A model generated the notes under the pieces. That model saw nothing but the letters and a program-made list of their open reading frames with translations, was not told the DNA's origin and did no database searches. Positions 14,936 through 55,954 of a stretch of DNA of 64,000 nucleotides are shown here, one piece after another (positions within the stretch are counted from its first letter, which is position 1; every line of letters starts with the position of its first letter). The DNA comes from an uncultured Candidatus Saccharibacteria bacterium (GTDB lineage Bacteria; Patescibacteriota; Minisyncoccia; Minisyncoccales; Staskawiczbacteraceae). The stretch lies in the NCBI GenBank assembly GCA_964356545.1, contig CAYHHX010000001.1, positions 1,918 through 65,917 on the forward strand, written 5' to 3'. Position numbers and translations under genes: made by a program.

Positions 14936-15081
14936 CTGAACTCGTTTGATTGGTAGGAGGGCTTTTGTCCTTATTATCTCCGTTTTCAAACACTTATCAA
15001 ATGTGAGCGGCAGTAATGCCGTCTTTTTTGAAAATATTGATTATTTTATTGATAGATGGTACCATAAATAAAGTAAAGGTA

Positions 15082-15222
15082 ATGGAAATAAGAAAACAGA
15101 TTTTTATTTATAAAAATTCAAAGGTTGAAAATTTAATGTTTCAAGTTTTTTCTATTATTTATCATAAATATCACGAGAAAAGTTTTTCTCTTTTAAAAAA
15201 TATTTCTGGAAGTTTTATTTAA
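15082..15222 (+). CDS. Conserved small protein (46 aa). Divergent copy A of a four-member repeated unit.
   Basis: Aligns codon by codon with the copies at 44364, 49220 and 54666 (I-R/E-K/R-Q-I-F/Y...KNSKV...MF...FS...KY-H/Q-EKS-F/L-SL...IS...F-I). The differences are mostly synonymous or conservative (GAG/GAA, AAA/AAG, TTT/TTC). SD 'aaagg' upstream. Confidence 0.5.
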   Translation: MEIRKQIFIYKNSKVENLMFQVFSIIYHKYHEKSFSLLKNISGSFI

Positions 15223-15252
15223 AAATACACCCATTAGTGGGTGTATTTTTTT
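15223..15252 (+). terminator. Intrinsic terminator of repeated unit A.
   Basis: 'atacacccattagtgggtgtat' hairpin plus T7. The same hairpin, with compensatory loop changes, ends all four units. Confidence 0.7.
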
Positions 15253-15270
15253 GGGGACATCTTAGAAAAC

Positions 15271-39701: not shown

Positions 39702-39763
39702 TTTAAAGGGTTTTTTATTGCATTTTCGCTCTAAAAAAGGCATAATAGGATAATAAATCCAAT

Positions 39764-40177: not shown

Positions 40178-40234
40178 GGTAGTATAAGAAATGGAAATAC
40201 GAATTTTTAAATAAAAATAAAAAAGTTTCAATAC

Positions 40235-41400: not shown

Positions 41401-41422
41401 ACTTTTTATTAATGAGGAAGTA

Positions 41423-41452
41423 GAAATGGTGGCTGTCCCCATTACCCCCCCC
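41423..41452. repeat. REP element (reverse orientation) with a C-run.
   Basis: 'gaaatggtggctgtccccattacccccccc'. Confidence 0.6.
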
Positions 41453-41617
41453 ACCTATGTAGACATTAGTTATTAACAGGCGAGGGTATTGACATAGAGT
41501 AAACAAAAGATTAGTATGAGTTTAATAAATCCTTATCGTTTGCTTCGGCTACGGTAAGCAATAGGAGCCCCTTTGGGGGCTCTTGTTTTTTATAAAGTAA
41601 AGTTATATCCTTGAAAT

Positions 41618-42178: not shown

Positions 42179-42327
42179 ATTAAATAAAGCTTAATACACC
42201 CATTTCTTGCTTTATTTTATTCCAATCAAGCGTTTTAAATGTGTCCAGCAAGCCCCTCCATTTCTCCATTCCTTAGTCCTAAGCATTTTCAGGCGCTTAT
42301 AGATGCGAAAGTTTTAAAATAATTTTT

Positions 42328-42855
42328 ATGAAAAAATTAATAATTTTAGTTGGCACTACTTCAGATCAAAAAATAAATTATTTGAAAGAGATTTTAAAAG
42401 AACTAAATATAAAATCAGAGTTAATTTCAATTCGAGTGAATAGTGGTGTTTCTGAACAACCTAAAACATCAACAGAAACCAAGAAAGGTTCAATTAATCG
42501 AGCCAAAAGAGCATTTAAAAAAGAATTAAAGGCAGATTTTTCAATAGGAATTGAAGTTGGGTATCATAAAAATTCTAAAAGAAAATATGAAATGTTTTGT
42601 TGGGTTACTATTATTGGTAATAATGGCTATCAAATATCAAGCCAGTCGCATAAGTTTTTATTGCCTAAATATTATCAGAATGTTTTGGAAAAAGGTTTAT
42701 TTGTAAACGAGCATTTGGGTGGGTTCATGAAAAATAAAAAAGAAGCATCGCACGCAAAGAGGAAAATTGACGAAATAGTTCGTCATAGAAAACCGTTTAT
42801 TGAAAACGCCTTAAAAAATGCGTTAATCCGTTATCTAAATAAAGAATATTTTTAG
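42328..42855 (+). CDS. Inosine/xanthosine triphosphatase (YjjX/DUF84-like non-canonical NTP phosphatase).
   Basis: 'ILVGTTSDQKINYLKE', 'SGVSEQPKTSTETKKGSINRAKRAF' and 'IGIEVG' resemble the YjjX family. Confidence 0.55.
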   Translation: MKKLIILVGTTSDQKINYLKEILKELNIKSELISIRVNSGVSEQPKTSTETKKGSINRAKRAFKKELKADFSIGIEVGYHKNSKRKYEMFCWVTIIGNNGYQISSQSHKFLLPKYYQNVLEKGLFVNEHLGGFMKNKKEASHAKRKIDEIVRHRKPFIENALKNALIRYLNKEYF

Positions 42856-42910
42856 AAAGTAGAATAGAGCGTAGAGTTATGAGAACCTTCCAATAAATCG
42901 CTAAAAGTAA

Positions 42911-42932
42911 AAATGGTGGCTGTCCCTATTTC
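42911..42932. repeat. REP element (reverse orientation).
   Basis: 'aaatggtggctgtccctatttc'. Confidence 0.55.
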
Positions 42933-43433
42933 TCATTTTTCGTTTGCCTTGATTGAAGGTAGATAGATAGTGTTCTTTATTTCCCTTGGATGAATTTTTA
43001 ATAATAAATCCTTTATTTCAATAGGAAAGATATTCATTTTTTCTATTTTAGTGTAATCTACCCAAACAGGCGTAAACACATATTTATTAGAAATCTTTTT
43101 AAATTCAGGAGAGTTAGTGTTCAGTTTTGGCCTAAAAGTGCTATTTAATTCTCGGTAAAAGTAAAAACTTTTTTCATTGATATCCTTTTTGTTTAACTGA
43201 ATAATGTGGCTAAGAGTCCCTGAAATATTGTAACTTAGCTCTTCTTTTGCCTCCCTTTTCACAGCATCAATAGCGTTTTCGCCCTTTTCTATAGTGCCAC
43301 CCGGAAAACAATAATAACTGAGGTTTCCTTTTTTTCTTTTGACTAATAATATTCTCTCTTTATAGGTCAAGATAATGACTGTTCTTTTTTTAATCATTGT
43401 GTTAGAATACCATATCTTTTTACCTTTAACCAA
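42933..43433 (-). CDS. NUDIX hydrolase.
   Basis: Nudix box 'GGTIEKGENAIDAVKREAKEELSY'. Confidence 0.8.
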   Translation of the reverse strand: MVKGKKIWYSNTMIKKRTVIILTYKERILLVKRKKGNLSYYCFPGGTIEKGENAIDAVKREAKEELSYNISGTLSHIIQLNKKDINEKSFYFYRELNSTFRPKLNTNSPEFKKISNKYVFTPVWVDYTKIEKMNIFPIEIKDLLLKIHPREIKNTIYLPSIKANEK

Positions 43434-43447
43434 TAAACAAGAAAGGG

Positions 43448-44029
43448 GTGCAAAAGATGAAGCGACCTTTTATCTTTGACGGCTTAGATGGTTCCGGCAA
43501 AACCACGCTAGTGCAGAGCATAGCTTTGGTAACAGGAATGAGTATTATCCCACGTCTTTCGCTAATAGAAGACGCAGGGATCAAAGATAAAATAAGGAAT
43601 AAGAATATCTCGGTGGATACAATTCATAAGCTCTATATGTCAGCAACGCATGTGCACCTTATGGATCTTATTTTGCCGAAGATAGAGTCTGGCGAAAAAT
43701 TTCTCATTGATCGGTGGATAGCAGGAATGTTAACTATGCATGTTTTGCGAGGAGGAACATTAGCTCATTGGACTACTCGAAATTACGACTGGAGTCCTAT
43801 TAAAGCGGTGGATTGTATCTTTGTAAGGGCTTCAGAAGAAGTACGCAAACAAAGAATCATGTGTCGTGGTTCGCTGACGAAATCAGATAGGGTAAGCTTC
43901 CATAAAGATGCTGAAACTATCCACCTCCAATTTGCCCAGAGATTTTACCGACGCGTGATACTTCTTGAGGCAACAAATCTCAATCCCGACGAACTTCTCG
44001 CAGAAGCTTTAAGGGTTTTGGATATTTAG
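43448..44029 (+). CDS. Thymidylate-kinase-like P-loop (d)NMP kinase.
   Basis: 'FIFDGLDGSGKTT' P-loop and 'LIDRWIAGMLT' (compare Tmk 'DRYxxSxxAYQ'). The gene is more G+C-rich than its flanks. Confidence 0.45.
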   Translation: MQKMKRPFIFDGLDGSGKTTLVQSIALVTGMSIIPRLSLIEDAGIKDKIRNKNISVDTIHKLYMSATHVHLMDLILPKIESGEKFLIDRWIAGMLTMHVLRGGTLAHWTTRNYDWSPIKAVDCIFVRASEEVRKQRIMCRGSLTKSDRVSFHKDAETIHLQFAQRFYRRVILLEATNLNPDELLAEALRVLDI

Positions 44030-44363
44030 CACATTGGTTTGCGTAAAGGCGAATGATTTTATAGGAGTAACTCGTAGTTACTCCTTTTTATTTTCTGAAT
44101 TTATCACTATTCTTTCCTACTTTTCTTTGTCCGGAGATGAAAAAAAATGTCATTAATCAGTTAGTTACCCAGTACGAAAGAACTTTTGGCAAAGCACCCC
44201 ATGAATTATGCAAAGAGGTTGTCCAAGATTTAATAGCAGAAATGCCCCCAGAAGAAATTCCTTCAAGTTTAAAGTAAGTACTATTTAGTACACCAGTGGC
44301 CATAGTGTTGTTTTTTTGAAAAAACTGTTGATTGTTTTACTAACAGGTGGTATTATTAGCATA

Positions 44364-44513
44364 ATGAAGACAATAGAAAGAGGTAAGCAGATTTATATGC
44401 ATAAAAATTCAAAGGTTGGAATTTCAATGTTCCGCGCTTTTTCTAGTGTTCCTGATAAATATCAGGAAAAGAGTCTTTCTCTTTCAAAAAGTATTTCTGA
44501 AAATTTTATTTAA
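44364..44513 (+). CDS. Conserved small protein (49 aa), copy B of the repeated unit.
   Basis: Near-identical to copies C and D. Promoter TTGATT-N17-TATTAT lies directly upstream, giving a leaderless or near-leaderless start. Terminator at 44514-44543. Confidence 0.5.
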   Translation: MKTIERGKQIYMHKNSKVGISMFRAFSSVPDKYQEKSLSLSKSISENFI

Positions 44514-44543
44514 AAATACACTCATTAGCGGGTGTATTTTTTT
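44514..44543 (+). terminator. Intrinsic terminator of unit B.
   Basis: 'aatacactcattagcgggtgtattttttt'. Confidence 0.7.
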
Positions 44544-44545
44544 AA

Positions 44546-44620
44546 AAATTATGCATTTTGGAGAACATTTAACAATCGATGGATACGGTGGTAACTTTGA
44601 AAAGCTAAATGATGAAGAAT
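44546..44620 (+). pseudogene. 5' fragment of a pyruvoyl-dependent S-adenosylmethionine decarboxylase-like gene (speH/speD-like), truncated by a REP.
   Basis: 'MHFGEHLTIDGYGGNFEKLNDEE' matches the AdoMetDC N-terminus pattern G-x-H-L-x-x-D/E-x-Y-G-C/G-x-F-x-K-L-N-D. The frame then runs into the REP at 44617-44650. Confidence 0.45.
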
Positions 44621-44650
44621 GGTGGCTGTCCCCATTGTCCCTCCCATTAC
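44617..44650. repeat. REP element (reverse orientation).
   Basis: 'gaatggtggctgtccccattgtccctcccattac'. Confidence 0.6.
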
Positions 44651-44698
44651 TCATTACTGCAGAGGTCAGCCGTATTGCATTATAAGAAAAATCATGGC

Positions 44699-45484
44699 AT
44701 GGTATTGATGGAAGAGATTCATGTTGAGTTTCTCAAACAGCACATTAAAAAAATAAAAAGGATAAGACGTGTATCCAATTTACAATTTGCGCAAAGGAGA
44801 ACTGTTATGCGTAAAATCGAAGGTTTGAAATTTCTTCAGAGATTTTTTCCGGACCAATGCGTTGACTGTATATTCGTAACTGATAAAGAGCCTATTATTT
44901 TAAATGATCTCGAGAAACATGCTTCTTCGCTTTTCCGAGTACGATCAAGTCGAAGGAATGGGTCCGACATCAATGCTCCAAGTAAAACCTGTCACTCGGT
45001 AAAAGAGGTTGTAAAATTCGTAGAAGATTTACGAAGTTTAAAACAATCTTGGGAGTTTGTAATTCACCGTGTAGATAAAGCGTACTTTACACCAAGTTTT
45101 ATTGGCACAATAGCGCTTTTCTATAAGGTAGAACCTCAAATCATGATTGATCTGCAATATGTGCCAAGTAGGGACGCACAAGCAATTGCCAATGGAGCAT
45201 ATCATGGTCAGCCACCGCGAGATTGGAAAGTGGCTGCTATGTACACTTTTCCTTTCTTTGGGCGACAACCTTGGATACGGATTATCGATCCATTATTTCA
45301 ATTAAGTGCGGTGAGTGAGTTTATCCCACGTTTATGGCGTATCGGTCGCGAAATTGATGATGTGAAGCAGTCTTTAGATGATCGATCATCAGCAGCTTTA
45401 CCAGAATCAGTAACGCGTTTCAATCTTTATTCAGATGGATCAATTTTGCTTGACGATCATCGTAACGTGAGTTCGTTCATCTAG
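44699..45484 (+). CDS. Hypothetical protein.
   Basis: Long sense ORF. The annotated ORF start at 44609 lies inside the REP, so a later Met (44699 or 44708) is more plausible. No motif recognised. Confidence 0.35.
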   Translation: MVLMEEIHVEFLKQHIKKIKRIRRVSNLQFAQRRTVMRKIEGLKFLQRFFPDQCVDCIFVTDKEPIILNDLEKHASSLFRVRSSRRNGSDINAPSKTCHSVKEVVKFVEDLRSLKQSWEFVIHRVDKAYFTPSFIGTIALFYKVEPQIMIDLQYVPSRDAQAIANGAYHGQPPRDWKVAAMYTFPFFGRQPWIRIIDPLFQLSAVSEFIPRLWRIGREIDDVKQSLDDRSSAALPESVTRFNLYSDGSILLDDHRNVSSFI

Positions 45485-45581
45485 CATTAATACCGGTGTG
45501 CTATAAGATAGTATGCCGGTTTTCTTTGTATATTAAATTTGATACTATAAAAGATATAAAAAGTTAAATTATTTTAAAAAT

Positions 45582-46094
45582 ATGAATGTTATAAAAGTAA
45601 TTAGGGATGAGGATTTTGGTTTGGATAATCCAGTCCCAAAGAATTATAAGGAGCGCAAAGCAAGTCGTTCCATTGTTTTTGATGAGAATAGACATGTTGC
45701 TTTACTTCATGTAACAAAAAAGAATTATCATAAACTACCTGGTGGAGGCATGGAAAAAGGGGAAGAAATTTCTGAAACACTTGAGAGAGAATTATTTGAA
45801 GAAATCGGATGTTCCGTAAAAGATGTTCGAGAGCTTGGTATCATTGAAGAGTATCGTAATAAACTGGAACTTCATCAAATTTCCTACTGTTTTTTAGCTA
45901 ATCTTATCGGAGATAAGGGAACTCCACACTTTAAAGATGATGAAATAGATGATGGTTTTAAAATAACATGGATGGATATACGGGATGCGATTAGAACATT
46001 AGAAAGTGAAATAAATACCAGAGATTATAGGGATAAATTTATATGCTTACGAGACCTCATATTACTAAAAGAGGCAGTAAAAGTTTACAAGTAA
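45582..46094 (+). CDS. NUDIX hydrolase.
   Basis: Nudix box 'GGGMEKGEEISETLERELFEEIGC'. Confidence 0.75.
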   Translation: MNVIKVIRDEDFGLDNPVPKNYKERKASRSIVFDENRHVALLHVTKKNYHKLPGGGMEKGEEISETLERELFEEIGCSVKDVRELGIIEEYRNKLELHQISYCFLANLIGDKGTPHFKDDEIDDGFKITWMDIRDAIRTLESEINTRDYRDKFICLRDLILLKEAVKVYK

Positions 46095-46167
46095 TATTTG
46101 ACGAATAATAAATGGTTAGGAATACCATCAAGACAGTAATAAAGTTTTAAAAACTAATTTTAAGATT

Positions 46168-47130
46168 ATGGAAAATACTGAAAAGAAATTCTCCATCGCT
46201 GGCGCCAATTTCAAAATTAAATCAAATTTTGAAATAGAAAGCTTGTTGTACGAACCGCAACCATACAATTTACATATCAACTATTTAATTAAAGACAAAG
46301 TTAAAAAGAGAGACATTTTCACTATCGTTATTCTTAGAAATAACAAGAACTTAAGTCTCCATGTAAAGGGTAGAAACCTTACCATTAGTGGCAAGATAGA
46401 CGCTATGTTTGAACGCGAATACAATCCTCAATTCGGACTTTTTGGTAATAAGGGGATAATACATCACTTTATTCTACATACTCTTGAAAACTATTTGAAA
46501 TTCAGCTTTTTGCATGCATCGGCGATACTTCATCCACACAGAAAAAAAATATGTATTGCACTTGGTCCAAGTGGTTCTGGTAAAAGCGTCTTTGTTTCAA
46601 ATGCCCTAAAAATAGGTTGGAAACTAATTGCAACTGAACAAGTTATAATTAGTGCTGACGGAGAAATATTTAAGGGAAATCAGTATGATAATATTTCACC
46701 AAAAGCAGTTGATTTTATAGAATCACAGCTAGACAGGGCAGTTGTCTTTAAAGAAAAACAACTGATTGAACCCACTGGTCAAAAATTACTTGCAAATCTC
46801 TCAGAATACGGGATCAGCGTAAATAAACTTTTACTACAAGGTTACGAACTTAACCTTGTAGTCCTTAATTTTGGTAATCTTTCTCATAAAAATGGTACAC
46901 CTATTATTGATGAAGATTTTTTACTAAGAGTTATGCAATACAGTTCAAGTGAAAAGATATGTGCTCCTATAATTTTTGATAAAAATATATTTAAACTTAA
47001 TATGAATGGGAATTCAAAAAATAGAACAACTACGGTTAATTTAATTATTGGTAAGGCAAATAAAAAAATCGTTCTTGGTGGTAATTATACGGATTTTGAG
47101 AGATGGTTACAGTACGAATATTTAAATTAA
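46168..47130 (+). CDS. HprK C-terminal-domain-like P-loop protein.
   Basis: 'LHASAILHPHRKKICIALGPSGSGKSVFVSNALKIGWKLIATEQVIISADGEI' resembles the HPr kinase C-terminal domain P-loop and flanking region. Very A+T-rich, K/N/I-rich. Confidence 0.4.
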   Translation: MENTEKKFSIAGANFKIKSNFEIESLLYEPQPYNLHINYLIKDKVKKRDIFTIVILRNNKNLSLHVKGRNLTISGKIDAMFEREYNPQFGLFGNKGIIHHFILHTLENYLKFSFLHASAILHPHRKKICIALGPSGSGKSVFVSNALKIGWKLIATEQVIISADGEIFKGNQYDNISPKAVDFIESQLDRAVVFKEKQLIEPTGQKLLANLSEYGISVNKLLLQGYELNLVVLNFGNLSHKNGTPIIDEDFLLRVMQYSSSEKICAPIIFDKNIFKLNMNGNSKNRTTTVNLIIGKANKKIVLGGNYTDFERWLQYEYLN

Positions 47131-47170
47131 TAAAAAAAATTAATAATATTAGAAATCAAATAAGAAAAAT

Positions 47171-47581
47171 ATGGAAAAACTAAAACAAGCAAGGTGGGCA
47201 AATTTTGATGAAATAACATCTCGCATTATTTCATTCGAAGGCAAACAACCTATTCAAATGAAGCATAGCGATGGTACAGCATTGCCACTACTAGTAGACG
47301 ATTCAAAAACTAATAAATTTGGAGCAGATATTATTAGGTTTGCGCCAGGAGAAGGTGTTGGACTTCATAAGCATATTGGTGCGCACATTCTTATGGTAAC
47401 AAAAGGCAGTGGTATACTTGTGTATGAGGACGAAAGACACTCTATGTTCGAAGGGATGATTTATTTAGTTCCATCAAATATTGCTCATGCAATTGAGGCG
47501 ACAACAGAGATAGTACTGGTAGCAATTGGCAATGACTATAGACCAGCTAATAGTGAAGAGCGTCTCAATATTGTAGGCTAA
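47171..47581 (+). CDS. Cupin-domain protein.
   Basis: 'PGEGVGLHKHIGAHILMVTKGSGILVYEDE...LVPSNIAHAIE' is the cupin_2 two-motif pattern (G-x5-HxH...G...H). Confidence 0.65.
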   Translation: MEKLKQARWANFDEITSRIISFEGKQPIQMKHSDGTALPLLVDDSKTNKFGADIIRFAPGEGVGLHKHIGAHILMVTKGSGILVYEDERHSMFEGMIYLVPSNIAHAIEATTEIVLVAIGNDYRPANSEERLNIVG

Positions 47582-47597
47582 TTAATGTGACAAGAAT

Positions 47598-48974
47598 ATG
47601 ATTTTTAACCTTGAACTTTTTAAACAACATTTACAAGATGCGGAAGTTATCATGTTTAAAAATGAAATTAGGGGATCTTTGACATACTTGCAATATGGGA
47701 TGGAAGTTAGAAATAAAATATACTCACTGGCCATGGATATGCTAAGAGATGATGAATTTAAGGAAATTAAATTGTCGGATATTATAAGAAAATCAGATGT
47801 CGTAAAACTCGATTCGATTTCTTTAATATCGGAAAATTATTTTTCCATTATTGAAAATAACTTTAATATGGCGGCGGGGCACGAAATACCGTTTTATTTG
47901 TTTTTAAAGAAATATTTAAAACTTTTTCGTCCTGTTGTTTTTCCTATTAAATTTTTTAATTTTGGATCAGTTTTCAGATTTCCAAAGAAGACAAAGTTCC
48001 CTTTCAACTTAGGAGAGCGGAGGTCCTTTTTAGAATGCTTTATAGTTTACAAAAACGAAAAAAGTAAAGAAAAGTATATTAATTGGGCAGTTGAGTGGAA
48101 TAGACAATTAATAAAAGAAAAATTACATTTACCGTCAATTGAGGTCGAACGTCCTTTGATAACTAACAAATCTTTTTCTCGTAAAACTATTTGTATAGAT
48201 TCGTTGACTCCTATAGGTATAAGCGTTATTACGGGAATGTCCTACTTTCACGATGATATATTTACAAAGTTATTAGAAATAAAATATAAACACAATCTTA
48301 CCGGTAAAAGTAAATTATTTCATGCCATGCATTTTGGAATTAGTGATAACTTATTTTTTTCCTATCTGATTAATTGTCATGACGGAAGAGGGTTTCGTAT
48401 GCTTAATAATATTGCTCCACTTCATATTGAAATCATAATAAGCGATGATGTGAAACCCAAACCCTTTGAATTGGAGTTGATTACTAAATATCTTGATGAA
48501 AAAAAGTATCGGTATAATGTAGAATATGCGAAGAAACTGCAAAAACCGCGTTTTTATATCAAAAAAAATATCATAAATGGTACACCCCTCACCATTATTT
48601 TTTCACATTATAATAGTAGTAGTATGACTTTATTTTATAGAGGAGATTTCGCTACTCAAGAATTTAAGATAAACGACTTGTATCTTATTGATGATTTTTT
48701 GAAGAAAAATGACGAAGAAATTATTTGTCATTTTAAAATAATAGAAGCTGAAACTATAGTTGAATGTGATACGATTGAAGATGTAAACAGATCGCTCTTG
48801 GATGGAAAAGTGTGCAAAATTTACTTAAAAAATAATGATAATAATATTCAAAACTGGAATCAAAAATTATTGCTTGTCCATGTGCTTGGTTTTTGCATTA
48901 GTAAAAATAGTGGTTACGACATCTTAACAGGAGATTCTGTCTTTACATTAGCTTATATCTCAAAAAGGTCATAA
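47598..48974 (+). CDS. Class II aminoacyl-tRNA-synthetase-like paralog (catalytic-core-like, no obvious anticodon-binding domain), otherwise hypothetical.
   Basis: 'FGSVFRFPKKTKFPFNLGERRSFLECFIVY' resembles class IIa aaRS motif 2 (G-x-x-F-R-N-E-x7-L-x-R-V-R-E-F-x-x-x-E...F), with Pro in place of the canonical Glu. Extremely A+T-rich gene. Confidence 0.35.
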   Translation: MIFNLELFKQHLQDAEVIMFKNEIRGSLTYLQYGMEVRNKIYSLAMDMLRDDEFKEIKLSDIIRKSDVVKLDSISLISENYFSIIENNFNMAAGHEIPFYLFLKKYLKLFRPVVFPIKFFNFGSVFRFPKKTKFPFNLGERRSFLECFIVYKNEKSKEKYINWAVEWNRQLIKEKLHLPSIEVERPLITNKSFSRKTICIDSLTPIGISVITGMSYFHDDIFTKLLEIKYKHNLTGKSKLFHAMHFGISDNLFFSYLINCHDGRGFRMLNNIAPLHIEIIISDDVKPKPFELELITKYLDEKKYRYNVEYAKKLQKPRFYIKKNIINGTPLTIIFSHYNSSSMTLFYRGDFATQEFKINDLYLIDDFLKKNDEEIICHFKIIEAETIVECDTIEDVNRSLLDGKVCKIYLKNNDNNIQNWNQKLLLVHVLGFCISKNSGYDILTGDSVFTLAYISKRS

Positions 48975-49094
48975 ATAGAAAAAATTAAGTCGTTAAGCAA
49001 ATGAAAAAACAAATAGTAATAATTCACCGGGGTTTCGCATTTGATACGTATAAATATAATAAATGGGGTGAAATAGGGACAGAAATAGGAAATA

Positions 49095-49120
49095 GGGGAA
49101 ATGGGGACGGCCACCATTTT
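49095..49120. repeat. REP element preceded by tandem degenerate half-repeats (49061-49094).
   Basis: 'aaatggggtgaaatagggacagaaataggaaataggggaaatggggacggccaccatttt'. Confidence 0.6.
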
Positions 49121-49183
49121 ATTTAATATTTTTTATTTGAATAAAATAATTAAGTGGCTATAGTGTTGTTTTTTTAAAAACTG

Positions 49184-49212
49184 TTGATTGTTTTATTGAC
49201 AGGTGGTATTAT
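49184..49212 (+). promoter_or_regulatory. Promoter of repeated unit C (TTGATT-N17-TATTAT). The same arrangement is present in units B and D.
   Basis: TTGATT 49184-49189, 17-nt spacer, TATTAT 49207-49212. The ATG at 49220 sits ~7 nt downstream, so the transcript would be leaderless. Confidence 0.5.
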
Positions 49213-49219
49213 TAGCACG

Positions 49220-49369
49220 ATGAAGACAATAGAAAGAGGTAAGCAGATTTATACGCATAAAAATTCAAAGGTTGGAATTTCAATGTTCCGCGCTTTTTCT
49301 AGTGTTCCTGATAAATATCAGGAAAAGAGTCTTTCTCTTTCAAAAAGTATTTCTGAAAATTTTACTTAA
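49220..49369 (+). CDS. Conserved small protein (49 aa), copy C. Identical to copy D.
   Basis: MKTIERGKQIYTHKNSKVGISMFRAFSSVPDKYQEKSLSLSKSISENFT. See copies A and B for the selection argument. Confidence 0.5.
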   Translation: MKTIERGKQIYTHKNSKVGISMFRAFSSVPDKYQEKSLSLSKSISENFT

Positions 49370-49398
49370 AAATACACCAATTAGCAGGTGTATTTTTT
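49369..49398 (+). terminator. Intrinsic terminator of unit C.
   Basis: 'aatacaccaattagcaggtgtatttttt'. The stem is preserved relative to units A and B despite loop changes. Confidence 0.7.
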
Positions 49399-49415
49399 GA
49401 TTAAGTTAATGATTA

Positions 49416-49490
49416 TGCATTTTGGGGAACATCTTACAATTGATGGATATGGCGGTCTTTTTGAAAAGCTAAATGATAAAAATGGTGTCT
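49416..49490 (+). pseudogene. Second 5' fragment of the AdoMetDC-like gene (MHFGEHLTIDGYGGLFEKLNDKNGV*), ending in a degenerate REP.
   Basis: Same N-terminal peptide as at 44546, followed by 'aaaaatggtgtctgatccc' (a degenerate REP). Confidence 0.4.
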
Positions 49491-49641
49491 GATCCCACGT
49501 AGTATGTGAACCAGAGCTGGTGATTGACAACACTTTTTGGTTAATATAGTATGAAACTGAAGGATTAAGAAGCTTTGCGTTTTGCATATTTTTCCATGAT
49601 CCTTGTTGTTCTTTGAAAAAATAAAGGGAGGTTGGTAAAAC

Positions 49642-50670
49642 ATGAAGTACAATAACCATCTGAATCCGATGAGTGTGAGAGAGTTTTATTCCGATTCTGC
49701 TATGCCACTTTTTTACCAGGAGTGGGCTAATAACTCTGGTAAAGAACCTTTGAGTTCCAAAAAAGTCAGAATTGCTATTACCGAAAAGTGTAACTTCGCG
49801 TGTCCATTTTGTTATAACGAAGGAATGTCTAATATTTCAAAGATATTGAGCGTAGGAGATATTAGGTTAATTGCCGAGGCAATATCTCCTTACGTTTCAG
49901 GATTAAAGATTGTTGGTGGTGAGCCTTTGTTACATCCTCAGTTTGGCGAGGTTGTTGAGCTCTGTTCTAAAACTTGTTCAACAACTGTCACTACTAATGG
50001 GTTTTTCCTTGACCGATGGACTAAGTATTTGGAGAGACTTACTGGAATAACGGTAAGTATCCAATCGCTCAACCCAGAAATCTATCGGTCCTTAATGGGT
50101 ACTCGCTTTGGACCAGAAGTAGTATTAAGGCAGATATCCCTATTTACAGAAAAAACAGAGATACCAGTTTCTGTAAATTGCGTTTTGACAAATGAAAATT
50201 CTCCCTCGATTTTAAATTTCATCGAGGAAATAGTATCTTGTGGCGCCAATGCTGTAAATTTGTTGGGACTCCTTTGTATTACAGACAAGGACAAAGAGGG
50301 GTATTATCCCCTTACATCCATTGTTGCTATTCTGACCGACAAGTATGGTCAGCCCGAAGTTGTTTCAAGTACGAGATTGAGATTTAGAATAAAAGAAAGC
50401 GTCCACACAGATGTTGTATACCAATTCTGTATGGTGGGCTGTGGTGTTTGTCGAACCGACGGATTTATTCGATTCGATCCAACGCCTGCTATTTCTTACT
50501 GCCTAGCGTCAGGTCCCATATCGATAAAGGAGGAAATTGATTCGAAAGATCCCTTAAAAATTCGTCAGTTGTTTTTAAGGGCTGTAAACCAGATGGGTCA
50601 ACCAACTGGTTATAAATACCAGGTTGTCTCCAGGAGACCAGACTCCAAGGGGATATACTCCTTATTGTAA
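49642..50670 (+). CDS. Radical SAM enzyme with a C-terminal Cys-rich (twitch/SPASM-like) region.
   Basis: 'ITEKCNFACPFCYNEG' (CX3CX2C) and a second cluster 'QFCMVGCGVCRTDG'. Strong SD 'aaagggagg' precedes the ATG. Putative promoter TTGACA ~49527. Confidence 0.7.
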   Translation: MKYNNHLNPMSVREFYSDSAMPLFYQEWANNSGKEPLSSKKVRIAITEKCNFACPFCYNEGMSNISKILSVGDIRLIAEAISPYVSGLKIVGGEPLLHPQFGEVVELCSKTCSTTVTTNGFFLDRWTKYLERLTGITVSIQSLNPEIYRSLMGTRFGPEVVLRQISLFTEKTEIPVSVNCVLTNENSPSILNFIEEIVSCGANAVNLLGLLCITDKDKEGYYPLTSIVAILTDKYGQPEVVSSTRLRFRIKESVHTDVVYQFCMVGCGVCRTDGFIRFDPTPAISYCLASGPISIKEEIDSKDPLKIRQLFLRAVNQMGQPTGYKYQVVSRRPDSKGIYSLL

Positions 50671-50839
50671 AGTACACGAGGGGTGCATACATCTGCATCC
50701 CTTTTTCTTTATTATTTTTCTAGATAGTTATAAAATATATATCTTTATGTAGGGGTGGTAGAGGGATTACTAATTTGGGTGCAACCAAATTATTTAAAGG
50801 TTCAACTCCTTTCCCCTACTCTGCCATTTTTTAATAAAA

Positions 50840-52219
50840 ATGAGAAAAATAACTAATAAATCTGAATTCAAAAAAGAATATCAAAAACAGTGTCTTTTCT
50901 TTGGTAAAAATTTAAAAGTTAAAGGTTTTATTAATACTAATATAATAAAAGTAATTGGTAGTAATTTAGAAATATATAAACAGATATTGTCTCAAGAAAA
51001 AAAGCCCATAAAACTAAAGTATATTTATGATAGAATAGAGAATTATAATAATTACTTAAAATTTTTAAGGAACGTATCAGAAAAAAATATCACAAAACCA
51101 CCTCTTGCTCTTTATTCATCCACTGCAAACCTAATTAATAATGGAAATTATGATCTTAGAATTAATTATGTATTAAATATATTTAATACAAATCACCACT
51201 TCTTATTTATTTTTTTAGAAGAGCCTATTTTTCATTCCGATAAAGATTTTAAAATAACAATCGTAAAAGAAAAATTAACAATAGATTTTAAAAGACATAA
51301 ATTTTTAGAAATAAAAAACAATATTTCTTATTGGGACAGAAAAATAAAAAGAGATATTGGGTCGTATATAGAAAATTTATCATTTAAAAATAAAGAATGG
51401 CTCAAAGAAAGATATTTTACGATTTTTGACTTTATTTTTAAATTAATTTTAGATTCTAATTCATATGAAGAACTATCAAAAAAAGTAGCAATTGACTGTT
51501 TGTTAATAGAAGGTTTCCAAGGAGTAATATTAAATCAATTAGATTTGATTGATCTACTAAAAAATAGAGTAGACTTCAGAGAATTATTTAATAATAAAGA
51601 CATTGAAATAGATATAATAAAATGCTGTGTTTGCGATAAACAGCACATAGGTCCATTTAAAAGAAATCTATCCGAAGGAATTTCGTGTGGCGATTTAAAC
51701 TGGTCTATTATATCTAATTCAAAAATAAGATTTAAAAAAGCTCTATTACCCTTTGTAGTATTATTTTACTTGAATATTATACCCGTATTATCTGATCATA
51801 ATTATTCAGAAAAAATCAAGAAATTTGAATCGACGAATAAATTAGATAAAGAAAATATTTGGTTTGCCTTACGCAAAATAAAATTCATATCTCTTTTCAA
51901 AGAATCAATGACATATATTAATATTTTAGCCGAGGGAGTAAATAAAGATATATATAAGCATATTAAAAATTGGAATAATCAAAAAGCAATTATTATTGGC
52001 AATCAAAGCTTTTATAAATTGAAAAACAAACAAGCTGATTTTATTTCCTTAAATAAATCGAATTTTTCTAAAAATATATTGAATATTATAAAAAAGAGAG
52101 AAGAGTTAAGGGTACTCAAAAAGTGGCATGAGGCTGATGCACTGAAAATAAAGCTTATATACTTAGGGATTGATTTTATTGAATCTGGAGGTAAGACTTT
52201 AGTTAGGGAAATTGGCTAA
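50840..52219 (+). CDS. Hypothetical protein (very A+T-rich, N/K/I-rich).
   Basis: 459-aa ORF with no recognisable motif. Composition is even more A+T-rich than the window average. Confidence 0.35.
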   Translation: MRKITNKSEFKKEYQKQCLFFGKNLKVKGFINTNIIKVIGSNLEIYKQILSQEKKPIKLKYIYDRIENYNNYLKFLRNVSEKNITKPPLALYSSTANLINNGNYDLRINYVLNIFNTNHHFLFIFLEEPIFHSDKDFKITIVKEKLTIDFKRHKFLEIKNNISYWDRKIKRDIGSYIENLSFKNKEWLKERYFTIFDFIFKLILDSNSYEELSKKVAIDCLLIEGFQGVILNQLDLIDLLKNRVDFRELFNNKDIEIDIIKCCVCDKQHIGPFKRNLSEGISCGDLNWSIISNSKIRFKKALLPFVVLFYLNIIPVLSDHNYSEKIKKFESTNKLDKENIWFALRKIKFISLFKESMTYINILAEGVNKDIYKHIKNWNNQKAIIIGNQSFYKLKNKQADFISLNKSNFSKNILNIIKKREELRVLKKWHEADALKIKLIYLGIDFIESGGKTLVREIG

Positions 52220-52246
52220 TTTTTTAATATCTAAAAAGAATACATT

Positions 52247-52921
52247 ATGAATAATCCGCTCAAAGCTATCGTATTATTCTTTGAAGGAGAAATTTCAAGA
52301 ATAGAGAAAATAAAAAAAATCAAAAAGAGAAGCAATAAATTTGTGGTTCTCTGTGGTCCAAGTGGAAGTGGCAAAAATATGATAATAAAACATCTTATTG
52401 ATCATTACGATTTCAGGGGACTTCCTTCTTTAACCACAAGATCGTTACGAAAGGGTGATGGTGAGCTTGAGATATTGTCTATGGGCAGGGATGAATTTAT
52501 GGAAAGGGAGCTCGATGGTAAAATATTTTTACCTGTACATAATTATGGTAACTTATATGGGTATGATATAAATACAGTATTAAATAGCATTATTCAGAAA
52601 AGTAGTATTGTTATTGAATCTCCTACAGCCAACTTAACGACAGATGTGGCGTATTTCTTACCTGAAGCCATGGTAATAGGAATAATACCATCAACTACTA
52701 ATGAGTTAGAACATCAATTGAATCTTCGGGGACTAAATGAAAAAAGAGACAAAAGGATACGATTATTAAATACAGAAATTGAAAAAGAACATATTATGGG
52801 TGCTTCAGAATTAATGGAAATTAATCAAGTAGTTCCTATTCCCGGGGTACCACAAGATACGCTTTCTCAAATTGACAGACTAATGGAAGAAAAAGGATTT
52901 AAAAAGAAAATAGCAGAATAA
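52247..52921 (+). CDS. gmk: Guanylate kinase-like P-loop kinase.
   Basis: 'VVLCGPSGSGKNMI', 'SLTTRSLRKGDGE' (compare Gmk 'SxTTRxPRxGExxG') and 'GNLYGYDINTV'. Confidence 0.5.
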   Translation: MNNPLKAIVLFFEGEISRIEKIKKIKKRSNKFVVLCGPSGSGKNMIIKHLIDHYDFRGLPSLTTRSLRKGDGELEILSMGRDEFMERELDGKIFLPVHNYGNLYGYDINTVLNSIIQKSSIVIESPTANLTTDVAYFLPEAMVIGIIPSTTNELEHQLNLRGLNEKRDKRIRLLNTEIEKEHIMGASELMEINQVVPIPGVPQDTLSQIDRLMEEKGFKKKIAE

Positions 52922-53067
52922 ATATTTATTCTATAAAAAGTGATGTAAGTTGACTAATTATTTCAATAGTGATAAATTAAACACAATTCAATTGCACCTT
53001 AAAAACTTAATAAAGTACGGGCGATTGATTGCAAGCATGGTCTATGAAACAACGAAAGGAAAATCTC

Positions 53068-54453
53068 ATGTCTCAGTCAGTCTACCTCTTTGATACCTAT
53101 CAAAGAGAGAAAAGGTTGTTCATTCCACTTGAACAAGGCAATATCAAGATATACACTTGTGGACCCACGGTGTATGACTACCCGCACATCGGCAATCTCC
53201 GTGCATACATTTTTGCGGATGTTCTTCGCAGGATGTTTGAATACAACGGATACAAAGTGCGACACGTGATCAATATCACTGATGTTGGTCATCTTACCTC
53301 TGATTCTGACTACGGCGAGGACAAAATGGAGTTAAGTGCCCAGAGACAAAAGCGTTCTGCATTAGAGATCGCCGATTTGTATACGGGAATCTTTAAACAG
53401 AATCTTTTTGACCTCAACATCAAAGATCCTACTGTCTGGTGCAAGGCGACCGATCACATCAGTGAGCAGATTGTCTTGATCCAACGGTTGGAGAAGGCTG
53501 GGTATACATATTTGACTTCCGACGGTGTCTACTTTGACACCTCTAAGCTGTCAAACTACGGTTATCTTGCTCGTTTGGATGTTGAAGGAATCGAGCCAGG
53601 TGCTCGGGTTGAGTTGGGAGAAAAAAGGAATCCGACCGACTTCGCACTTTGGAAACTCTCTCCGAAAGAGAAGACAAGGCAGATGGAATGGCCGAGTCCA
53701 TGGGGGGCTGGATTTCCTGGCTGGCACATTGAGTGCAGTGCTATGGCGATGAAGTACTTGGGAGAGATGATAGATGTTCACACTGGTGGCATTGATCATA
53801 TTCCAGTACATCATACTAATGAAATAGCGCAGTCGGAGTCCGTAACCGGTCAGAAGTTCGTCAACTACTGGCTACATGTGGCGTTTCTGACTGTCGAAAG
53901 TCAGAAAATGTCAAAGAGCGCAGGGACATTTATTACCTTGCAAGAGGTTATCGATCGTCACTACGACCCTTTGGCGTTTCGCTACATGGCACTGACTTCT
54001 CACTACCGCGCTGGTCTAAATTTCACATGGGATGGATTAAAGGGTGCTCAAAAGGCACTCGCCTCCTTACGTGAAAAGGTGTCTCAGTACCAGCGCAAAG
54101 AGGTGGCACCTGACGAAGAATCTCTGACGGAGTTTAGGAGTCGCATTAACAATGATCTGAACACTCCCCAAGCTTTGGCGTTTCTATTTGAGGTTGTCAG
54201 GTCAAATTTGCTTGACACTGTCAAGCGGGCAACCATGCTTGAGTTTGACAAGGTGCTGGGGCTCAAGTTGGATCAAGTTTCGGCGGAAAGCGATGTACCG
54301 CAAGATGTGGTGGAGCTCTTGGTCCAACGCCAACAGTTCCGCAGGGAGAAAAATTGGAAGGAATCCGACCGCGTTCGTCAGGAGATCGTCGCTAAAGGAT
54401 ACGATGTCGAAGATACGCCTGAAAGGTCACGAGTTGTCAAAAAAGGGTTGTAA
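53068..54453 (+). CDS. cysS: Cysteinyl-tRNA synthetase.
   Basis: HIGH-class motif 'PHIGNLRAY', 'KMSKSAGTF' and a CysRS-like zinc site 'WHIECSAM'. Start at ATG 53068 after SD 'aaaggaaa'. The gene is markedly more G+C-rich than its flanks. Confidence 0.85.
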   Translation: MSQSVYLFDTYQREKRLFIPLEQGNIKIYTCGPTVYDYPHIGNLRAYIFADVLRRMFEYNGYKVRHVINITDVGHLTSDSDYGEDKMELSAQRQKRSALEIADLYTGIFKQNLFDLNIKDPTVWCKATDHISEQIVLIQRLEKAGYTYLTSDGVYFDTSKLSNYGYLARLDVEGIEPGARVELGEKRNPTDFALWKLSPKEKTRQMEWPSPWGAGFPGWHIECSAMAMKYLGEMIDVHTGGIDHIPVHHTNEIAQSESVTGQKFVNYWLHVAFLTVESQKMSKSAGTFITLQEVIDRHYDPLAFRYMALTSHYRAGLNFTWDGLKGAQKALASLREKVSQYQRKEVAPDEESLTEFRSRINNDLNTPQALAFLFEVVRSNLLDTVKRATMLEFDKVLGLKLDQVSAESDVPQDVVELLVQRQQFRREKNWKESDRVRQEIVAKGYDVEDTPERSRVVKKGL

Positions 54454-54470: not shown

Positions 54471-54505
54471 TCAAGAGGTTGTAGTACAAAAACTACAACC
54501 TCTTT
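54471..54505 (+). terminator. Intrinsic terminator after cysS.
   Basis: 'aagaggttgtagtacaaaaactacaacctcttttttc'. Confidence 0.7.
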
Positions 54506-54555: not shown

Positions 54556-54665
54556 GACAATAAAATAGAAACAGAAATAAAATCTATTTTGAAATTAAGT
54601 GGCTTACCGTCGCTTTTTTTTAAAAACTGTTGATTGTTTTATTGACAGGTGGTATTATTAGCACG

Positions 54666-54815
54666 ATGAAGACAATAGAAAGAGGTAAGCAGATTTATAC
54701 GCATAAAAATTCAAAGGTTGGAATTTCAATGTTCCGCGCTTTTTCTAGTGTTCCTGATAAATATCAGGAAAAGAGTCTTTCTCTTTCAAAAAGTATTTCT
54801 GAAAATTTTACTTAA
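54666..54815 (+). CDS. Conserved small protein (49 aa), copy D.
   Basis: Identical to copy C, including the promoter (54630-54658). Terminator at 54815-54846. Confidence 0.5.
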   Translation: MKTIERGKQIYTHKNSKVGISMFRAFSSVPDKYQEKSLSLSKSISENFT

Positions 54816-54857
54816 AAATACACCAATTAGCAGGTGTATTTTTTGATTAAGTTAATG

Positions 54858-55475
54858 ATTGATTTTACAGATTCAAAATCGGTAATTGGGCTCATCGCAG
54901 GCATTATTGCTTTTACGGCTTATATTATCTATATAATTTCAATATTAAAAGGCAGAACCAAGCCAAATAGGTCAACTTGGTGGATTTGGTCGTTTATGGG
55001 ATTGGTGGTTGGACTAAGTTATTATTTATCAGGCGCCGTTAATACTATTTGGGTTCCAGTAGTTGAGTTTATAGGGCCATTATCTATTGCACTATTGTCT
55101 GTAAAATATGGAGAAGGGAAGTTGAGCGATAAAACAGACTTAATTTGTCTCGTTGGCGCGGTTTTGAGTGTAATTTTATGGATAATATTTAATAATCCTG
55201 TTATTGCTTTAGTAACCAATTTAGCGGCCGATTCATTTGCTATTGTTCCTACTATTAAAAAATCATATTTACGACCAGAAGGAGAAGATTTTTGGGCATG
55301 GCTTGGCACAGGCACCGCCGACAGTTTGAATTTCTTTGCTGTTGAAAGATTTTCCTTTGCGATTCTTATTTATCCGATTTATATGCTCGTTTCAGACCTT
55401 ATTATAGTTATAGTATTATTAATGAAGAAAAAAGATATTATGAAAGATACTAGTTTTCTTAGAAAAAAAATATGA
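54858..55475 (+). CDS. Hypothetical multi-pass membrane protein whose start codon lies inside the 3' end of repeated unit D.
   Basis: The ATG at 54858 is the same 'gttaATGatt' that precedes the AdoMetDC-like fragment in unit C. About six hydrophobic helices. Confidence 0.45.
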   Translation: MDFTDSKSVIGLIAGIIAFTAYIIYIISILKGRTKPNRSTWWIWSFMGLVVGLSYYLSGAVNTIWVPVVEFIGPLSIALLSVKYGEGKLSDKTDLICLVGAVLSVILWIIFNNPVIALVTNLAADSFAIVPTIKKSYLRPEGEDFWAWLGTGTADSLNFFAVERFSFAILIYPIYMLVSDLIIVIVLLMKKKDIMKDTSFLRKKI

Positions 55476-55954
55476 AAAAAGATTTATACGTTGCAAAAAG
55501 TAAAACTCACGGTAAAGGAATTTTTACCAAGAGAGATATAAAAAAAGGAGAAAATATTTGTATCATCAGGGGCCCAGAGATGTTTAAAATCAACAAAAAC
55601 ATGAAAGATGTTTTATCTCATCCAAATTGGGTAGGTTTTAAAATAAATAATTGGGTAGACCCAGTTCCACCATATAAATATCTAAATCATTCATGTGACG
55701 CTAATGCTGCAATTAAAGGTCGTAAAACTCTTATAGCTATTCGTGATATCAAAGAAGGGGATGAAGTTACTATAGATTATTCAACGATTGAGGCTGATTC
55801 TCGTTGGTATATGAAATGTGAATGTGGGAGTAAAAATTGCAGAGGTATAATAAAATCAATCCAAGAACTTCCGGAAAAAGTTTATAAAAATTACTATCCA
55901 TATATTTCTAAAGATTTTCAGCGTGCATATGAGAGAAGTAATAAAAAAAACTAA
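55472..55954 (+). CDS. SET-domain protein (putative protein-lysine methyltransferase) with a post-SET Cys cluster.
   Basis: 'NHSCDANAAIKG' (NHSCxPN motif), 'EGDEVTIDYS' and 'WYMKCECGSKNCRG'. Confidence 0.75.
   Translation: MKKDLYVAKSKTHGKGIFTKRDIKKGENICIIRGPEMFKINKNMKDVLSHPNWVGFKINNWVDPVPPYKYLNHSCDANAAIKGRKTLIAIRDIKEGDEVTIDYSTIEADSRWYMKCECGSKNCRGIIKSIQELPEKVYKNYYPYISKDFQRAYERSNKKN

Follow-up and report, generated by a model that had tools for sequence, protein, structure and literature searches.

Does the block of genes between positions 46168 and 52921 of the DNA analysed here encode a single undescribed modification system? The window, that is the whole stretch of 64,000 nucleotides analysed, comes from an uncultured Candidatus Saccharibacteria bacterium (contig CAYHHX010000001.1, assembly GCA_964356545.1), and its gene content is typical of the Patescibacteria or Candidate Phyla Radiation (CPR). 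Its sequence is matched by a contig of 61.9 kb obtained from 0.1-um-filtered groundwater of the Hainich aquifer (ENA ERZ1292625). A previous reading of the sequence alone had grouped an HprK-like P-loop protein, a cupin, an aminoacyl-tRNA synthetase (aaRS)-like protein, a radical S-adenosylmethionine (radical SAM) enzyme and a 459-amino-acid (aa) orphan into one candidate system, punctuated by repeated small open reading frames (ORFs). We find that something undescribed is present, but that it is not one system of the kind that makes ribosomally synthesised and post-translationally modified peptides (RiPPs), fed by the repeated peptides. The interval from 46168 to 54453 is more probably a mosaic of two independently conserved modules related to tRNA synthetases, each placed behind a copy of one leader cassette. 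Module 1 (46168-48974, + strand) comprises the P-loop protein, the cupin and a paralogue of prolyl-tRNA synthetase (ProRS). Module 2 (49642-54453, + strand) comprises the radical SAM enzyme, a tRNA-Cys-like gene, the orphan, a Gmk-like kinase and a cysteinyl-tRNA synthetase (CysRS). Both modules are undescribed and uncharacterised, and the functions proposed for them below are inferred from sequence.

The separation of the two gene sets follows from their synteny elsewhere. In tblastn and hidden Markov model searches of all the fetched loci, the radical SAM, orphan and Gmk-like genes are missing wherever the set of ProRS-like, P-loop and cupin genes occurs, and the converse is also true. The radical SAM, orphan and Gmk-like genes were absent from 13 of 13 other contexts of the ProRS-like gene, and the ProRS-like, cupin and P-loop genes from 5 of 5 other contexts of the radical SAM/orphan pair. 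The five-gene block therefore corresponds to two modules that lie side by side in this genome: conserved gene sets do exist, as the synteny across loci supports, but all five genes together were found in no other context. Terminators at 45492, 50678 and 54473 and three leader copies partition the region into separate transcription units; the gaps between the genes in 46168-48974 are 16-73 nt. The sequence-only reading had placed the five ORFs correctly, and its guesses of fold and family proved essentially right in profile, PDB-profile and AlphaFold2 (AF2) searches. Judged by curated cut-offs, none of the five is a standard housekeeping enzyme. Two features had been overlooked, a tRNA-like gene at 50749-50821 and a CysRS-type C-terminal domain in the orphan.

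The core of module 1 is the ProRS-like gene (47598..48974, + strand), which encodes a full-length paralogue (458 aa) of archaeal-type ProRS with a remodelled active site. Its relation to class II aaRS had been recognised from a motif-2-like segment; the relation stands, but it extends over the entire protein. The match to TIGR00408 reached 76 bits (E 2e-21; cut-off 437), and the family profile aligned with the structures 1nj8 and 1nj1 at E 1e-32, spanning residues 7-457 (profile positions 6-457 against residues 41-499 of 1nj1, E 1e-31). The protein thus aligns end to end with the archaeal/eukaryote-type ProRS of M. jannaschii (1NJ8) and M. thermautotrophicus (1NJ1), and the catalytic core, the anticodon-binding domain (ABD) and the C-terminal domain are all kept. 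However, it differs from these enzymes at defining positions. In all 23 aligned sequences of the family, RPTSE is changed to AAGHE (GHE for TxE, with loss of the threonine) and the motif-3 Arg to Asn or His. The family alignment also shows (F/Y)RxP in place of FRxE, and where ProRS has its C-terminal Tyr the family ends in ...SRRS. Invariant in the family are the motif-2 Arg and the adenine-stacking Phe, which it shares with ProRS, and many new positions, among them WNR, TNK, ITGMxYxHDD and the C-terminal tail. Unlike archaeal-type ProRS, moreover, the protein scores far under the equivalog cut-off, and its gene is linked to those of a P-loop protein, a cupin and a transporter. The protein lacks two residues needed for canonical proline activation, the TxE threonine, which binds proline, and the motif-3 arginine, which binds ATP, and it probably no longer serves as the ProRS of the cell. 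Neither a LeuRS gene nor a second or canonical ProRS gene was found within the window.

Non-charging paralogues of aaRS are well known: HisZ, the HisRS-like domain of GCN2 and the accessory subunit of Pol-gamma are examples. In these, too, a class II aaRS scaffold without its canonical catalytic residues has been put to new use beside a partner enzyme; they descend, however, from HisRS or GlyRS-like ancestors, whereas the protein described here derives from ProRS. A full-text literature search returned neither a ProRS paralogue of this kind nor a ProRS-derived family with these partners, and the one family member that carries a source name is annotated as a hypothetical protein. Searches of the ProRS-like protein against plasmid and phage collections gave no match.

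The first gene of module 1 (46168..47130, + strand) encodes a P-loop phosphotransferase-like protein of 320 aa with a PEPCK/HprK fold, a 'mini-PEPCK'. It has no Pfam match and scores 16 bits against TIGR04352 (HprK-related kinase A; cut-off 200), and its family profile gave only generic Walker-A matches in the PDB, with none to PEPCK at the sequence level. Common to about 50 homologues, each of 315-335 aa, are a His, the Walker A sequence GxSGSGKS, a (T/S)E motif whose Glu is invariant, and the signature YNxQFxLFGNKG, which is specific to the family. The AF2 model computed with the homologue alignment (predicted local distance difference test, pLDDT, of 95) has the two-domain PEPCK fold, with PEPCK as its best fold match. 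The P-loop GxSGxGKS of HPr kinase/phosphorylase, with the conserved His that precedes it, and the fold of the HprK C-terminal domain are also present. The shared family motifs and the confident model place the predicted protein as a compact member of the PEPCK/HprK P-loop superfamily. Compared with PEPCK it is short (320 aa, against 514-605 aa); compared with HprK it carries (T/S)E(Q/H/L/Y), with its invariant Glu, instead of DD; and it stands apart from the superfamily in matching no curated family and in having its own YNxQFxLFGNKG motif. In contrast to the HprK-related kinases of RiPP clusters, neither PqqD nor a precursor peptide lies near its gene. The second gene (47171..47581, + strand) encodes a cupin of 136 aa with an invariant four-His metal site (H66, H68, H72 and H106). 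It matches Cupin_2 at E 1e-10, and the nearest PDB structure, 9ug7 (E 1.5e-12), has no named function.

How widely is module 1 distributed? Exact look-ups and a pattern-based scan over 185,579 species genomes supplied the loci with the ProRS-like gene; since the scan relied on a pattern, its counts are lower bounds. The gene occurs in at least 10 of these genomes, and its 14 distinct contexts belong to three phyla: Patescibacteria, nine uncultured Clostridia metagenome-assembled genomes (MAGs) and the cultured Bacteroidota Pseudoflavitalea rhizosphaerae. Eight contigs are apparently common to two independent lists of module 1 homologues. The P-loop gene adjoins the ProRS-like gene in nine of the 14 contexts, the cupin gene in four, including the window, where it lies directly upstream (as in L004, L006 and L010), and a gene for a membrane protein with ten transmembrane (TM) segments and no Pfam match in ten. 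A LeuRS gene lies at most 8 kb away in nine of the 14, and the three LeuRS neighbours that were scanned all exceed the TIGR00396 cut-off. In the Clostridia MAGs the order is often ProRS-like, P-loop, membrane protein and leuS, with overlapping start and stop codons that suggest operons. A search of ten loci for T-box leaders ahead of the ProRS-like/leuS operons revealed none. Archaeal-type ProRS binds LeuRS at the C-terminal domain of the latter (PMC4394549). With leuS as the commonest neighbour, this makes a LeuRS-associated role of the ProRS-like protein plausible.

Several individual loci of module 1 show further features. In the soil Patescibacteria MAG GCA_965611865.1 (L006), a LeuRS of only 665 aa without the CP1 editing domain is encoded at 10466-12463, two genes downstream of the ProRS-like gene, and a 338-aa protein with a weak match to Pol-beta nucleotidyltransferases occupies the place expected for the P-loop gene. 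In L004 a dehydrogenase gene of the Ldh_2 family (9363-10355, - strand) lies between the ProRS-like and P-loop genes; this family includes pyrroline/piperideine-2-carboxylate reductases, which hints at a link to a proline analogue. In one Clostridia MAG (L011, 1-2079) the ProRS-like/P-loop/membrane-protein/leuS operon begins right after a 23S-5S-tRNA cluster. In the window itself, the segment just upstream of the block (39200-46100) is unusually dense in nucleotide house-cleaning genes (GGACT, HIT, CYTH, Maf, NYN, NTPase_I-T, two NUDIX and Tmk-like), and a third NUDIX gene is found downstream at about 58 kb. The two genes that directly precede module 1, for a 261-aa protein with no assigned function (44699-45484, + strand, followed by the terminator at 45492-45520) and a NUDIX hydrolase (45582-46094, + strand), are specific to the window and not conserved with the module. 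We had considered that module 1 was inserted into an ancestral operon of the 261-aa, NUDIX and radical SAM genes; this idea is unsupported, as the genes upstream of the radical SAM gene in L021 and L030 share only generic NUDIX similarity with them.

Module 2 begins with the radical SAM gene (49642..50670, + strand), which is followed by the terminator at 50678-50703. The enzyme carries the motif CNFACPFCYNEG and GGEPL and is MoaA-like: it matches TIGR02668 over residues 40-317 at 106 bits (cut-off 325), and its profile aligns with MoaA (1tv7) over residues 40-302 at E 5e-26. The conserved cysteines are those of the CxxxCxxC motif (C50, C54, C57) and four in the C-terminal region (C263, C267, C270, C287). 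With MoaA, the GTP 3',8-cyclase, the enzyme shares the core and the region of the C-terminal auxiliary cluster, aligned through ...C-x2-C...G-F-I-R...C-L. It differs in the spacing of the C-terminal cysteines (C-x3-C-x2-C-x16-C), in a score under the equivalog cut-off, and in having a conserved partner that bears a tRNA-Cys anticodon-binding domain. No molybdenum cofactor biosynthesis genes occur among the annotated neighbours in the radical SAM loci examined. The RiPP pathway proposed from the sequence does not fit the enzyme: the Pfam-type domain search revealed no SPASM and no PqqD/RRE match, models of peptide maturases reached only 25-37 bits (cut-offs 268-850) and covered the radical SAM core only, and the best match was MoaA rather than a peptide maturase. 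The viperin model NF038283 gave 57 bits (cut-off 180), and PADLOC pVip aligned with residues 42-197 only (profile positions 2-161 of 257). Among the PADLOC defence models, this partial pVip match and weak P-loop matches were all that was found.

The conserved partner of the radical SAM enzyme is the orphan (50840..52219, + strand). It has few relatives, as the sequence-only reading had supposed (four among 1.84 billion representative proteins), but it does not lack domains altogether. The N-terminal part of about 400 aa has no recognised fold, and the C-terminal part of about 55 aa is a CysRS-type anticodon-binding domain. Four lines of evidence bear on this assignment. CysS_C (PF23493) matches three of the six family members (best E 6e-6), the member in the window being under the Pfam reporting threshold; the C-terminus of the orphan matches that of the CysRS encoded in the same window (BLASTP E 7e-6); the family profile recovers only CysRS C-termini from the PDB (E 1e-5); and the AF2 model from a five-sequence alignment, poor overall (pLDDT 45), is confident only at residues 400-459, which form a helix-helix-hairpin. 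A CxxCxxxH...C motif upstream of the C-terminal domain is also conserved. The orphan is followed by a Gmk-like P-loop nucleoside monophosphate (NMP) kinase paralogue (52247..52921, + strand; TIGR03263 51 bits, cut-off 160) and by the last gene of the unit, which encodes a CysRS with a C-terminal anticodon-binding domain (53029..54453, + strand) and ends before the terminator at 54473-54504.

The radical SAM/orphan pair recurs in six contexts (the window, L020, L028/29, L030, L031 and L032), with orphan identities of 23-55%. A CysRS gene accompanies the pair in three of them (in the window, and directly adjacent in L020 and L028) and an NMP-kinase-like gene accompanies it in three (window, L020, L030): the Gmk-like homologue of L020 is fused to a MutT-like NUDIX domain, and a Tmk-like kinase gene follows the orphan homologue in L030. 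L020 also encodes a second CysRS of 419 aa (9043-10302, - strand; cysS 421 bits), which has no C-terminal anticodon-binding domain and whose gene is convergent with the radical SAM gene. A radical SAM homologue (40% identical) was also found in L021 (1-4636 and 5984-9017), in an operon of 242-aa, NUDIX, 286-aa and radical SAM genes beside a dnd (DNA phosphorothioation) cluster; no orphan homologue was found near it.

Between the radical SAM gene and the orphan, we found a non-canonical tRNA-Cys-like gene (50749..50821, + strand; ARAGORN 'anticodon gc'), which ends 18 nt ahead of the orphan start codon. The predicted RNA folds as a cloverleaf in which the acceptor stem has 7 bp, the D-loop is short and an anticodon stem of 7 bp is closed by the 6-nt loop GUGCAA (anticodon GCA); the T-loop reads UUCAACU, and the discriminator is U. 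Instead of the canonical 5-bp anticodon stem and 7-nt loop it thus has 7 bp and 6 nt, and it fails the Rfam tRNA model; of the tRNA models only tRNA-Sec matches, at 20 bits (E 0.1; gathering score 47). U73 and GCA are identity elements of tRNA-Cys (PMC7609411), and the gene carries both. In L020, where the surrounding genes are rearranged, this element is again present, 11 nt ahead of the gene for the orphan homologue. Between the two genes, two compensatory pair changes were observed with 97.8% of cells paired, and the flanks diverge. This covariation is suggestive rather than statistically strong because only two distinct sequences can be compared. The terminators at 50678-50703 and 54473-54504 bracket the tRNA-like RNA, the orphan, the Gmk-like kinase and CysRS, which are thus likely to be carried by one transcript.

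Aberrant tRNA-Cys molecules have a precedent in the selC* tRNA-Cys, which works with a CysRS* devoid of the ABD (reviewed in PMC7609411). Like selC* tRNA-Cys, the tRNA-like RNA is aberrant, combines U73 with GCA, has a lengthened anticodon stem and is encoded beside cysS-type genes. It differs in its 7/5 acceptor/T-stems, 4-nt variable region and 6-nt anticodon loop, whereas the selC* molecules have 8/4 stems and a long variable arm. A counterpart of the ABD-less CysRS is found in L020 only and not in the window, and the partners here are a radical SAM enzyme, a kinase and a stand-alone ABD protein, in patescibacterial hosts. The selC* tRNA-Cys/CysRS* pair was reportedly described by Mukai et al. 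in 2017. At the Rfam gathering threshold, the only other RNAs of the whole window are tRNAs and a class A RNase P RNA (7740-8183); the score of the latter (100.1, gathering threshold 100) lies just at the threshold and suggests a divergent CPR-type RNase P RNA.

What, then, are the repeated units? They are real, and four copies (74-100% identical) are present in the window. Unit B (44313..44685, + strand) contains a promoter-like TTGATT-17-TATTAT (44328-44356), a 49-codon ORF (44364-44513) and a terminator hairpin; unit C (49169..49489, + strand) has the same organisation (promoter-like element 49184-49212, 49-codon ORF 49220-49369, terminator hairpin at about 49371-49398). Unit D (54615..54860, + strand; small ORF 54666-54815) is fused at a speH start codon (ATGATT) to a membrane-protein gene. 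Unit A (15022..15267, + strand; small ORF at about 15073-15222) is the most diverged copy; its identity to unit C is 74%, and it has lost neither the reading frame nor the stop codon. The general layout is thus a promoter-like element, a 49-codon ORF and an intrinsic terminator that starts 1-4 nt past the stop codon. Eight copies, some of which are diverged and come from other samples (L025-L027), preserve the frame and the stop codon of the small ORF, one of the eight having an in-frame 12-nt insertion, and dN/dS is 0.27-0.47 for most of the diverged pairs. Copies B, C and D of the window are near-identical, B and C differing in two of 49 codons. A structured RNA built on the hairpin CCUGAU...AUCAGG had also been considered and was dropped in favour of the small ORF because the diverged copies do not preserve this internal hairpin; Rfam at E <= 10 returned nothing credible for unit C.

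The genes that follow the units are informative on their nature. In L027 the unit precedes an intact gene for a 128-aa SpeH/AdoMetDC, and in the window only stubs of speH remain, 23 codons after unit B (44551-44619, + strand) and 25 codons after unit C (49415-49489, + strand). The proposal that the small ORF supplies the peptide substrate is contradicted by its distribution: it travels with neither module elsewhere, the unit being absent from every other locus of either module, and it precedes speH, an RHS toxin gene and a membrane-protein gene. Likewise, no precursor peptide is conserved beside the radical SAM gene, as the small ORF is absent next to its homologues elsewhere. On the simplest reading of the sequences, a speH leader made up of promoter, leader ORF and terminator has been duplicated before several operons, and the units are not precursor peptides. 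Leader peptides that act as attenuators are known in trpL-type leaders and in speFL, upstream of speF. The units resemble these in having a short conserved ORF after a promoter, with a stop codon that abuts an intrinsic terminator, ahead of a polyamine gene (speH in L027). They differ in that no alternative anti-terminator structure was identified in the unit and in that the cassette is copied before unrelated operons. Directly behind unit A lies the gene for a 2126-aa RHS-repeat/SpvB/FG-GAP protein with an alpha/beta-hydrolase-like C-terminal region (15349-21729); a 213-aa multi-pass membrane protein with a weak YhhN match is encoded behind unit D (54855-55954), its gene overlapping a SET-domain gene.

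The speH stubs after units B and C end exactly at a second repeated motif, the GGGGACAGCCAC hairpin (44622-44633 in the case of unit B). The GGGGACAGCCAC core, within the imperfect palindrome AATGGGGACAGCCACCATT, occurs 12 times in the window (0.8 expected), at 15272, 22041, 22350, 23060, 37700, 41429, 42916, 44622, 49103, 54539, 59644 and 63500. All of these sites lie between genes, most of them just past a 3' end, and both orientations are represented; the motif is also present in L026, and the element may be a repetitive extragenic palindromic (REP)-like sequence or a recombination scar. A hairpin-like intergenic motif, GGGGACGGCCAC, lies between the ProRS-like gene and unit C (49095..49142, + strand).

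The composition of the block was compared with 44 ORFs from the rest of the window (mean G+C content, GC, 33.8%, standard deviation 5.2, minimum 24.5%). The block had been called A+T-extreme. This holds for the orphan, whose GC of 23.3% is below all 44 ORFs and below its neighbours, but not for the P-loop gene (31.3%), the cupin gene (38.2%) and the radical SAM gene (39.9%), which are inside the range, the last two above the mean. The value for the ProRS-like gene is 29.0%.

Other explanations of the locus were weighed against these data. A single RiPP or aminoacyl-modification pathway made up of all five genes, with the repeated small peptides as substrates, is most improbable. RiPP pathways do include HprK-like kinases, aaRS paralogues and radical SAM enzymes, the small ORF is apparently a coding sequence and one copy lies directly upstream of the radical SAM gene; yet the five genes are syntenic nowhere else, the small ORF is missing from all other loci of both modules and stands before unrelated genes in the window and before speH in L027, copies B, C and D hardly differ from one another, and the MoaA-like enzyme has no SPASM or RRE match. 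Could the block instead hold a functional, fast-evolving A+T-biased ProRS, a normal tRNA, Gmk and CysRS, with the other genes as unrelated hypothetical neighbours? Translation genes are abundant nearby (leuS, RF-1, S2, EF-Ts, an rRNA operon), the full ProRS architecture is kept and none of the fetched loci shows a second ProRS. We nevertheless consider this explanation unlikely. Two residues that class II ProRS otherwise has without exception, the Thr of TxE and the Arg of motif 3, are lost in 23 of 23 sequences, the 76 bits scored fall far short of the cut-off of 437, and the gene is apparently rare (at least 10 of the 185,579 genomes scanned), linked to the P-loop protein across phyla and, in one carrier, a large-genome Bacteroidota, found beside extracytoplasmic function (ECF) sigma and FecR genes. 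Moreover, the Gmk-like protein reaches 51 bits against 160, and the tRNA-like gene fails the Rfam tRNA model. By the criteria applied, neither module contains a member of ProRS, HprK, MoaA, viperin, RiPP maturases or canonical tRNA; each is a known scaffold with changed defining features, kin to the aaRS-paralogue modules and to the non-canonical tRNA-Cys systems.

Two further explanations concern one module each. Module 1 might be a regulatory pair of GCN2 or HisZ type, in which the ProRS-like pseudo-synthetase is the sensor, with uncharged tRNA or an amino acid as its signal, and governs a HprK-type serine kinase that acts on a translation factor such as LeuRS. The loss of the catalytic Arg with retention of the anticodon-binding domain, the HprK-type Walker A motif and fold, the position of the genes next to leuS, and in L008 next to relA/spoT, and the precedent of a LeuRS-ProRS complex (PMC4394549) all speak for this pair, to which we give a minor but appreciable chance. 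For module 2, a mobile anti-phage or nucleotide-modifying islet, composed of a viperin-like radical SAM enzyme and a nucleotide kinase, integrated next to a tRNA gene and carrying the low-GC orphan as its cargo, is distinctly unlikely. PADLOC pVip matches at E 7.5e-20 and 1.8e-14, the NMP-kinase-like neighbour is fused to NUDIX in L020, the orphan (23% GC) lies right behind the tRNA-like gene, and the radical SAM homologue of L021 adjoins dnd genes. However, pVip covers the radical SAM core only (42-197), whereas MoaA reaches residue 302-317 and includes the auxiliary cluster region; the only recognisable domain of the orphan binds the tRNA-Cys anticodon, and CysRS recurs beside the pair. Further, no integrase was seen, the ProRS-like protein, the sole protein of the block searched against phage and plasmid collections, had no match there, and the tRNA-like gene and the orphan stay coupled after rearrangement in L020.

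Several observations count against the two-module mosaic that we favour, or against parts of it. The modules neighbour each other and share a leader, so that co-regulation or a functional link specific to this genome is possible. Module 2 is known from few and short contigs, several of them from one aquifer, and its tRNA-like gene from two genomes only, with 113 of 500 shuffles reaching the covariation support of that gene. The leuS adjacency of module 1 could come in part from the shared ancestry of related Clostridia MAGs, and dN/dS of the small ORF is about 1.1 when copy A is compared with copies B and C.

On the two-module reading, the following workings can be proposed. In module 1, the ProRS-like protein would bind an amino-acid- or adenylate-type ligand and/or tRNA in a pocket that differs from that of ProRS and is strongly conserved, and would work with the PEPCK/HprK-fold phosphotransferase as its constant partner; a metal cupin in Patescibacteria and Bacteroidota, or the 10-TM transporter in Clostridia, would complete the set. 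The usual adjacency to leuS suggests that its task may be tied to translation, possibly through a physical partnership with LeuRS, and the data leave a metabolic and a regulatory (GCN2/HisZ-like) role as the two choices. Module 2 would be centred on tRNA-Cys. A tRNA-Cys-like RNA would be transcribed just ahead of the orphan, whose CysRS-type domain may bind the GCA anticodon, either in tRNA-Cys itself or in the tRNA-like RNA, and thereby recruit or regulate the chemistry of the radical SAM enzyme and the kinase, with the RNA or a guanine nucleotide as its target. This arrangement points to radical or nucleotide chemistry directed to tRNA-Cys or, alternatively, to a tRNA-mimic control element of a cysS operon. 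The repeated unit would act as a control element of the leader-peptide/attenuator type, and its copies before four unrelated operons would put these under one signal.

A bolder proposal is that one or both modules constitute a new kind of tRNA-dependent modification pathway. The radical SAM enzyme and the P-loop kinase would then act on the tRNA-Cys-like RNA held by the stand-alone CysRS anticodon-binding protein, giving a new anticodon-loop nucleoside or a non-canonical aminoacyl-tRNA, and the ProRS-derived protein, the PEPCK-fold kinase and the cupin oxygenase would carry out an analogous transformation linked to tRNA or LeuRS. Taken with all these details jointly, the proposal is a long shot; if true, it would represent previously unknown chemistry of the translation machinery in ultra-small bacteria. 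Paralogues of aaRS have repeatedly been found to carry unexpected chemistry or regulation, as in HisZ, EpmA, GCN2 and CysRS*.

The analysis defines a ProRS-derived family with a remodelled and conserved pocket and fixed gene partners in three phyla, usually beside leuS. It also defines a second module, in which a MoaA-like radical SAM enzyme is coupled to a protein whose C-terminal domain is of the kind that binds the tRNA-Cys anticodon; in two genomes an aberrant tRNA-Cys-like RNA joins them. A leader composed of promoter, small ORF and terminator that is copied before several operons would be an unusual way of building a regulon. Since the genomes of Patescibacteria are reduced, every accessory module that they retain is informative, and both modules offer entries into the translation-linked biology of these bacteria.

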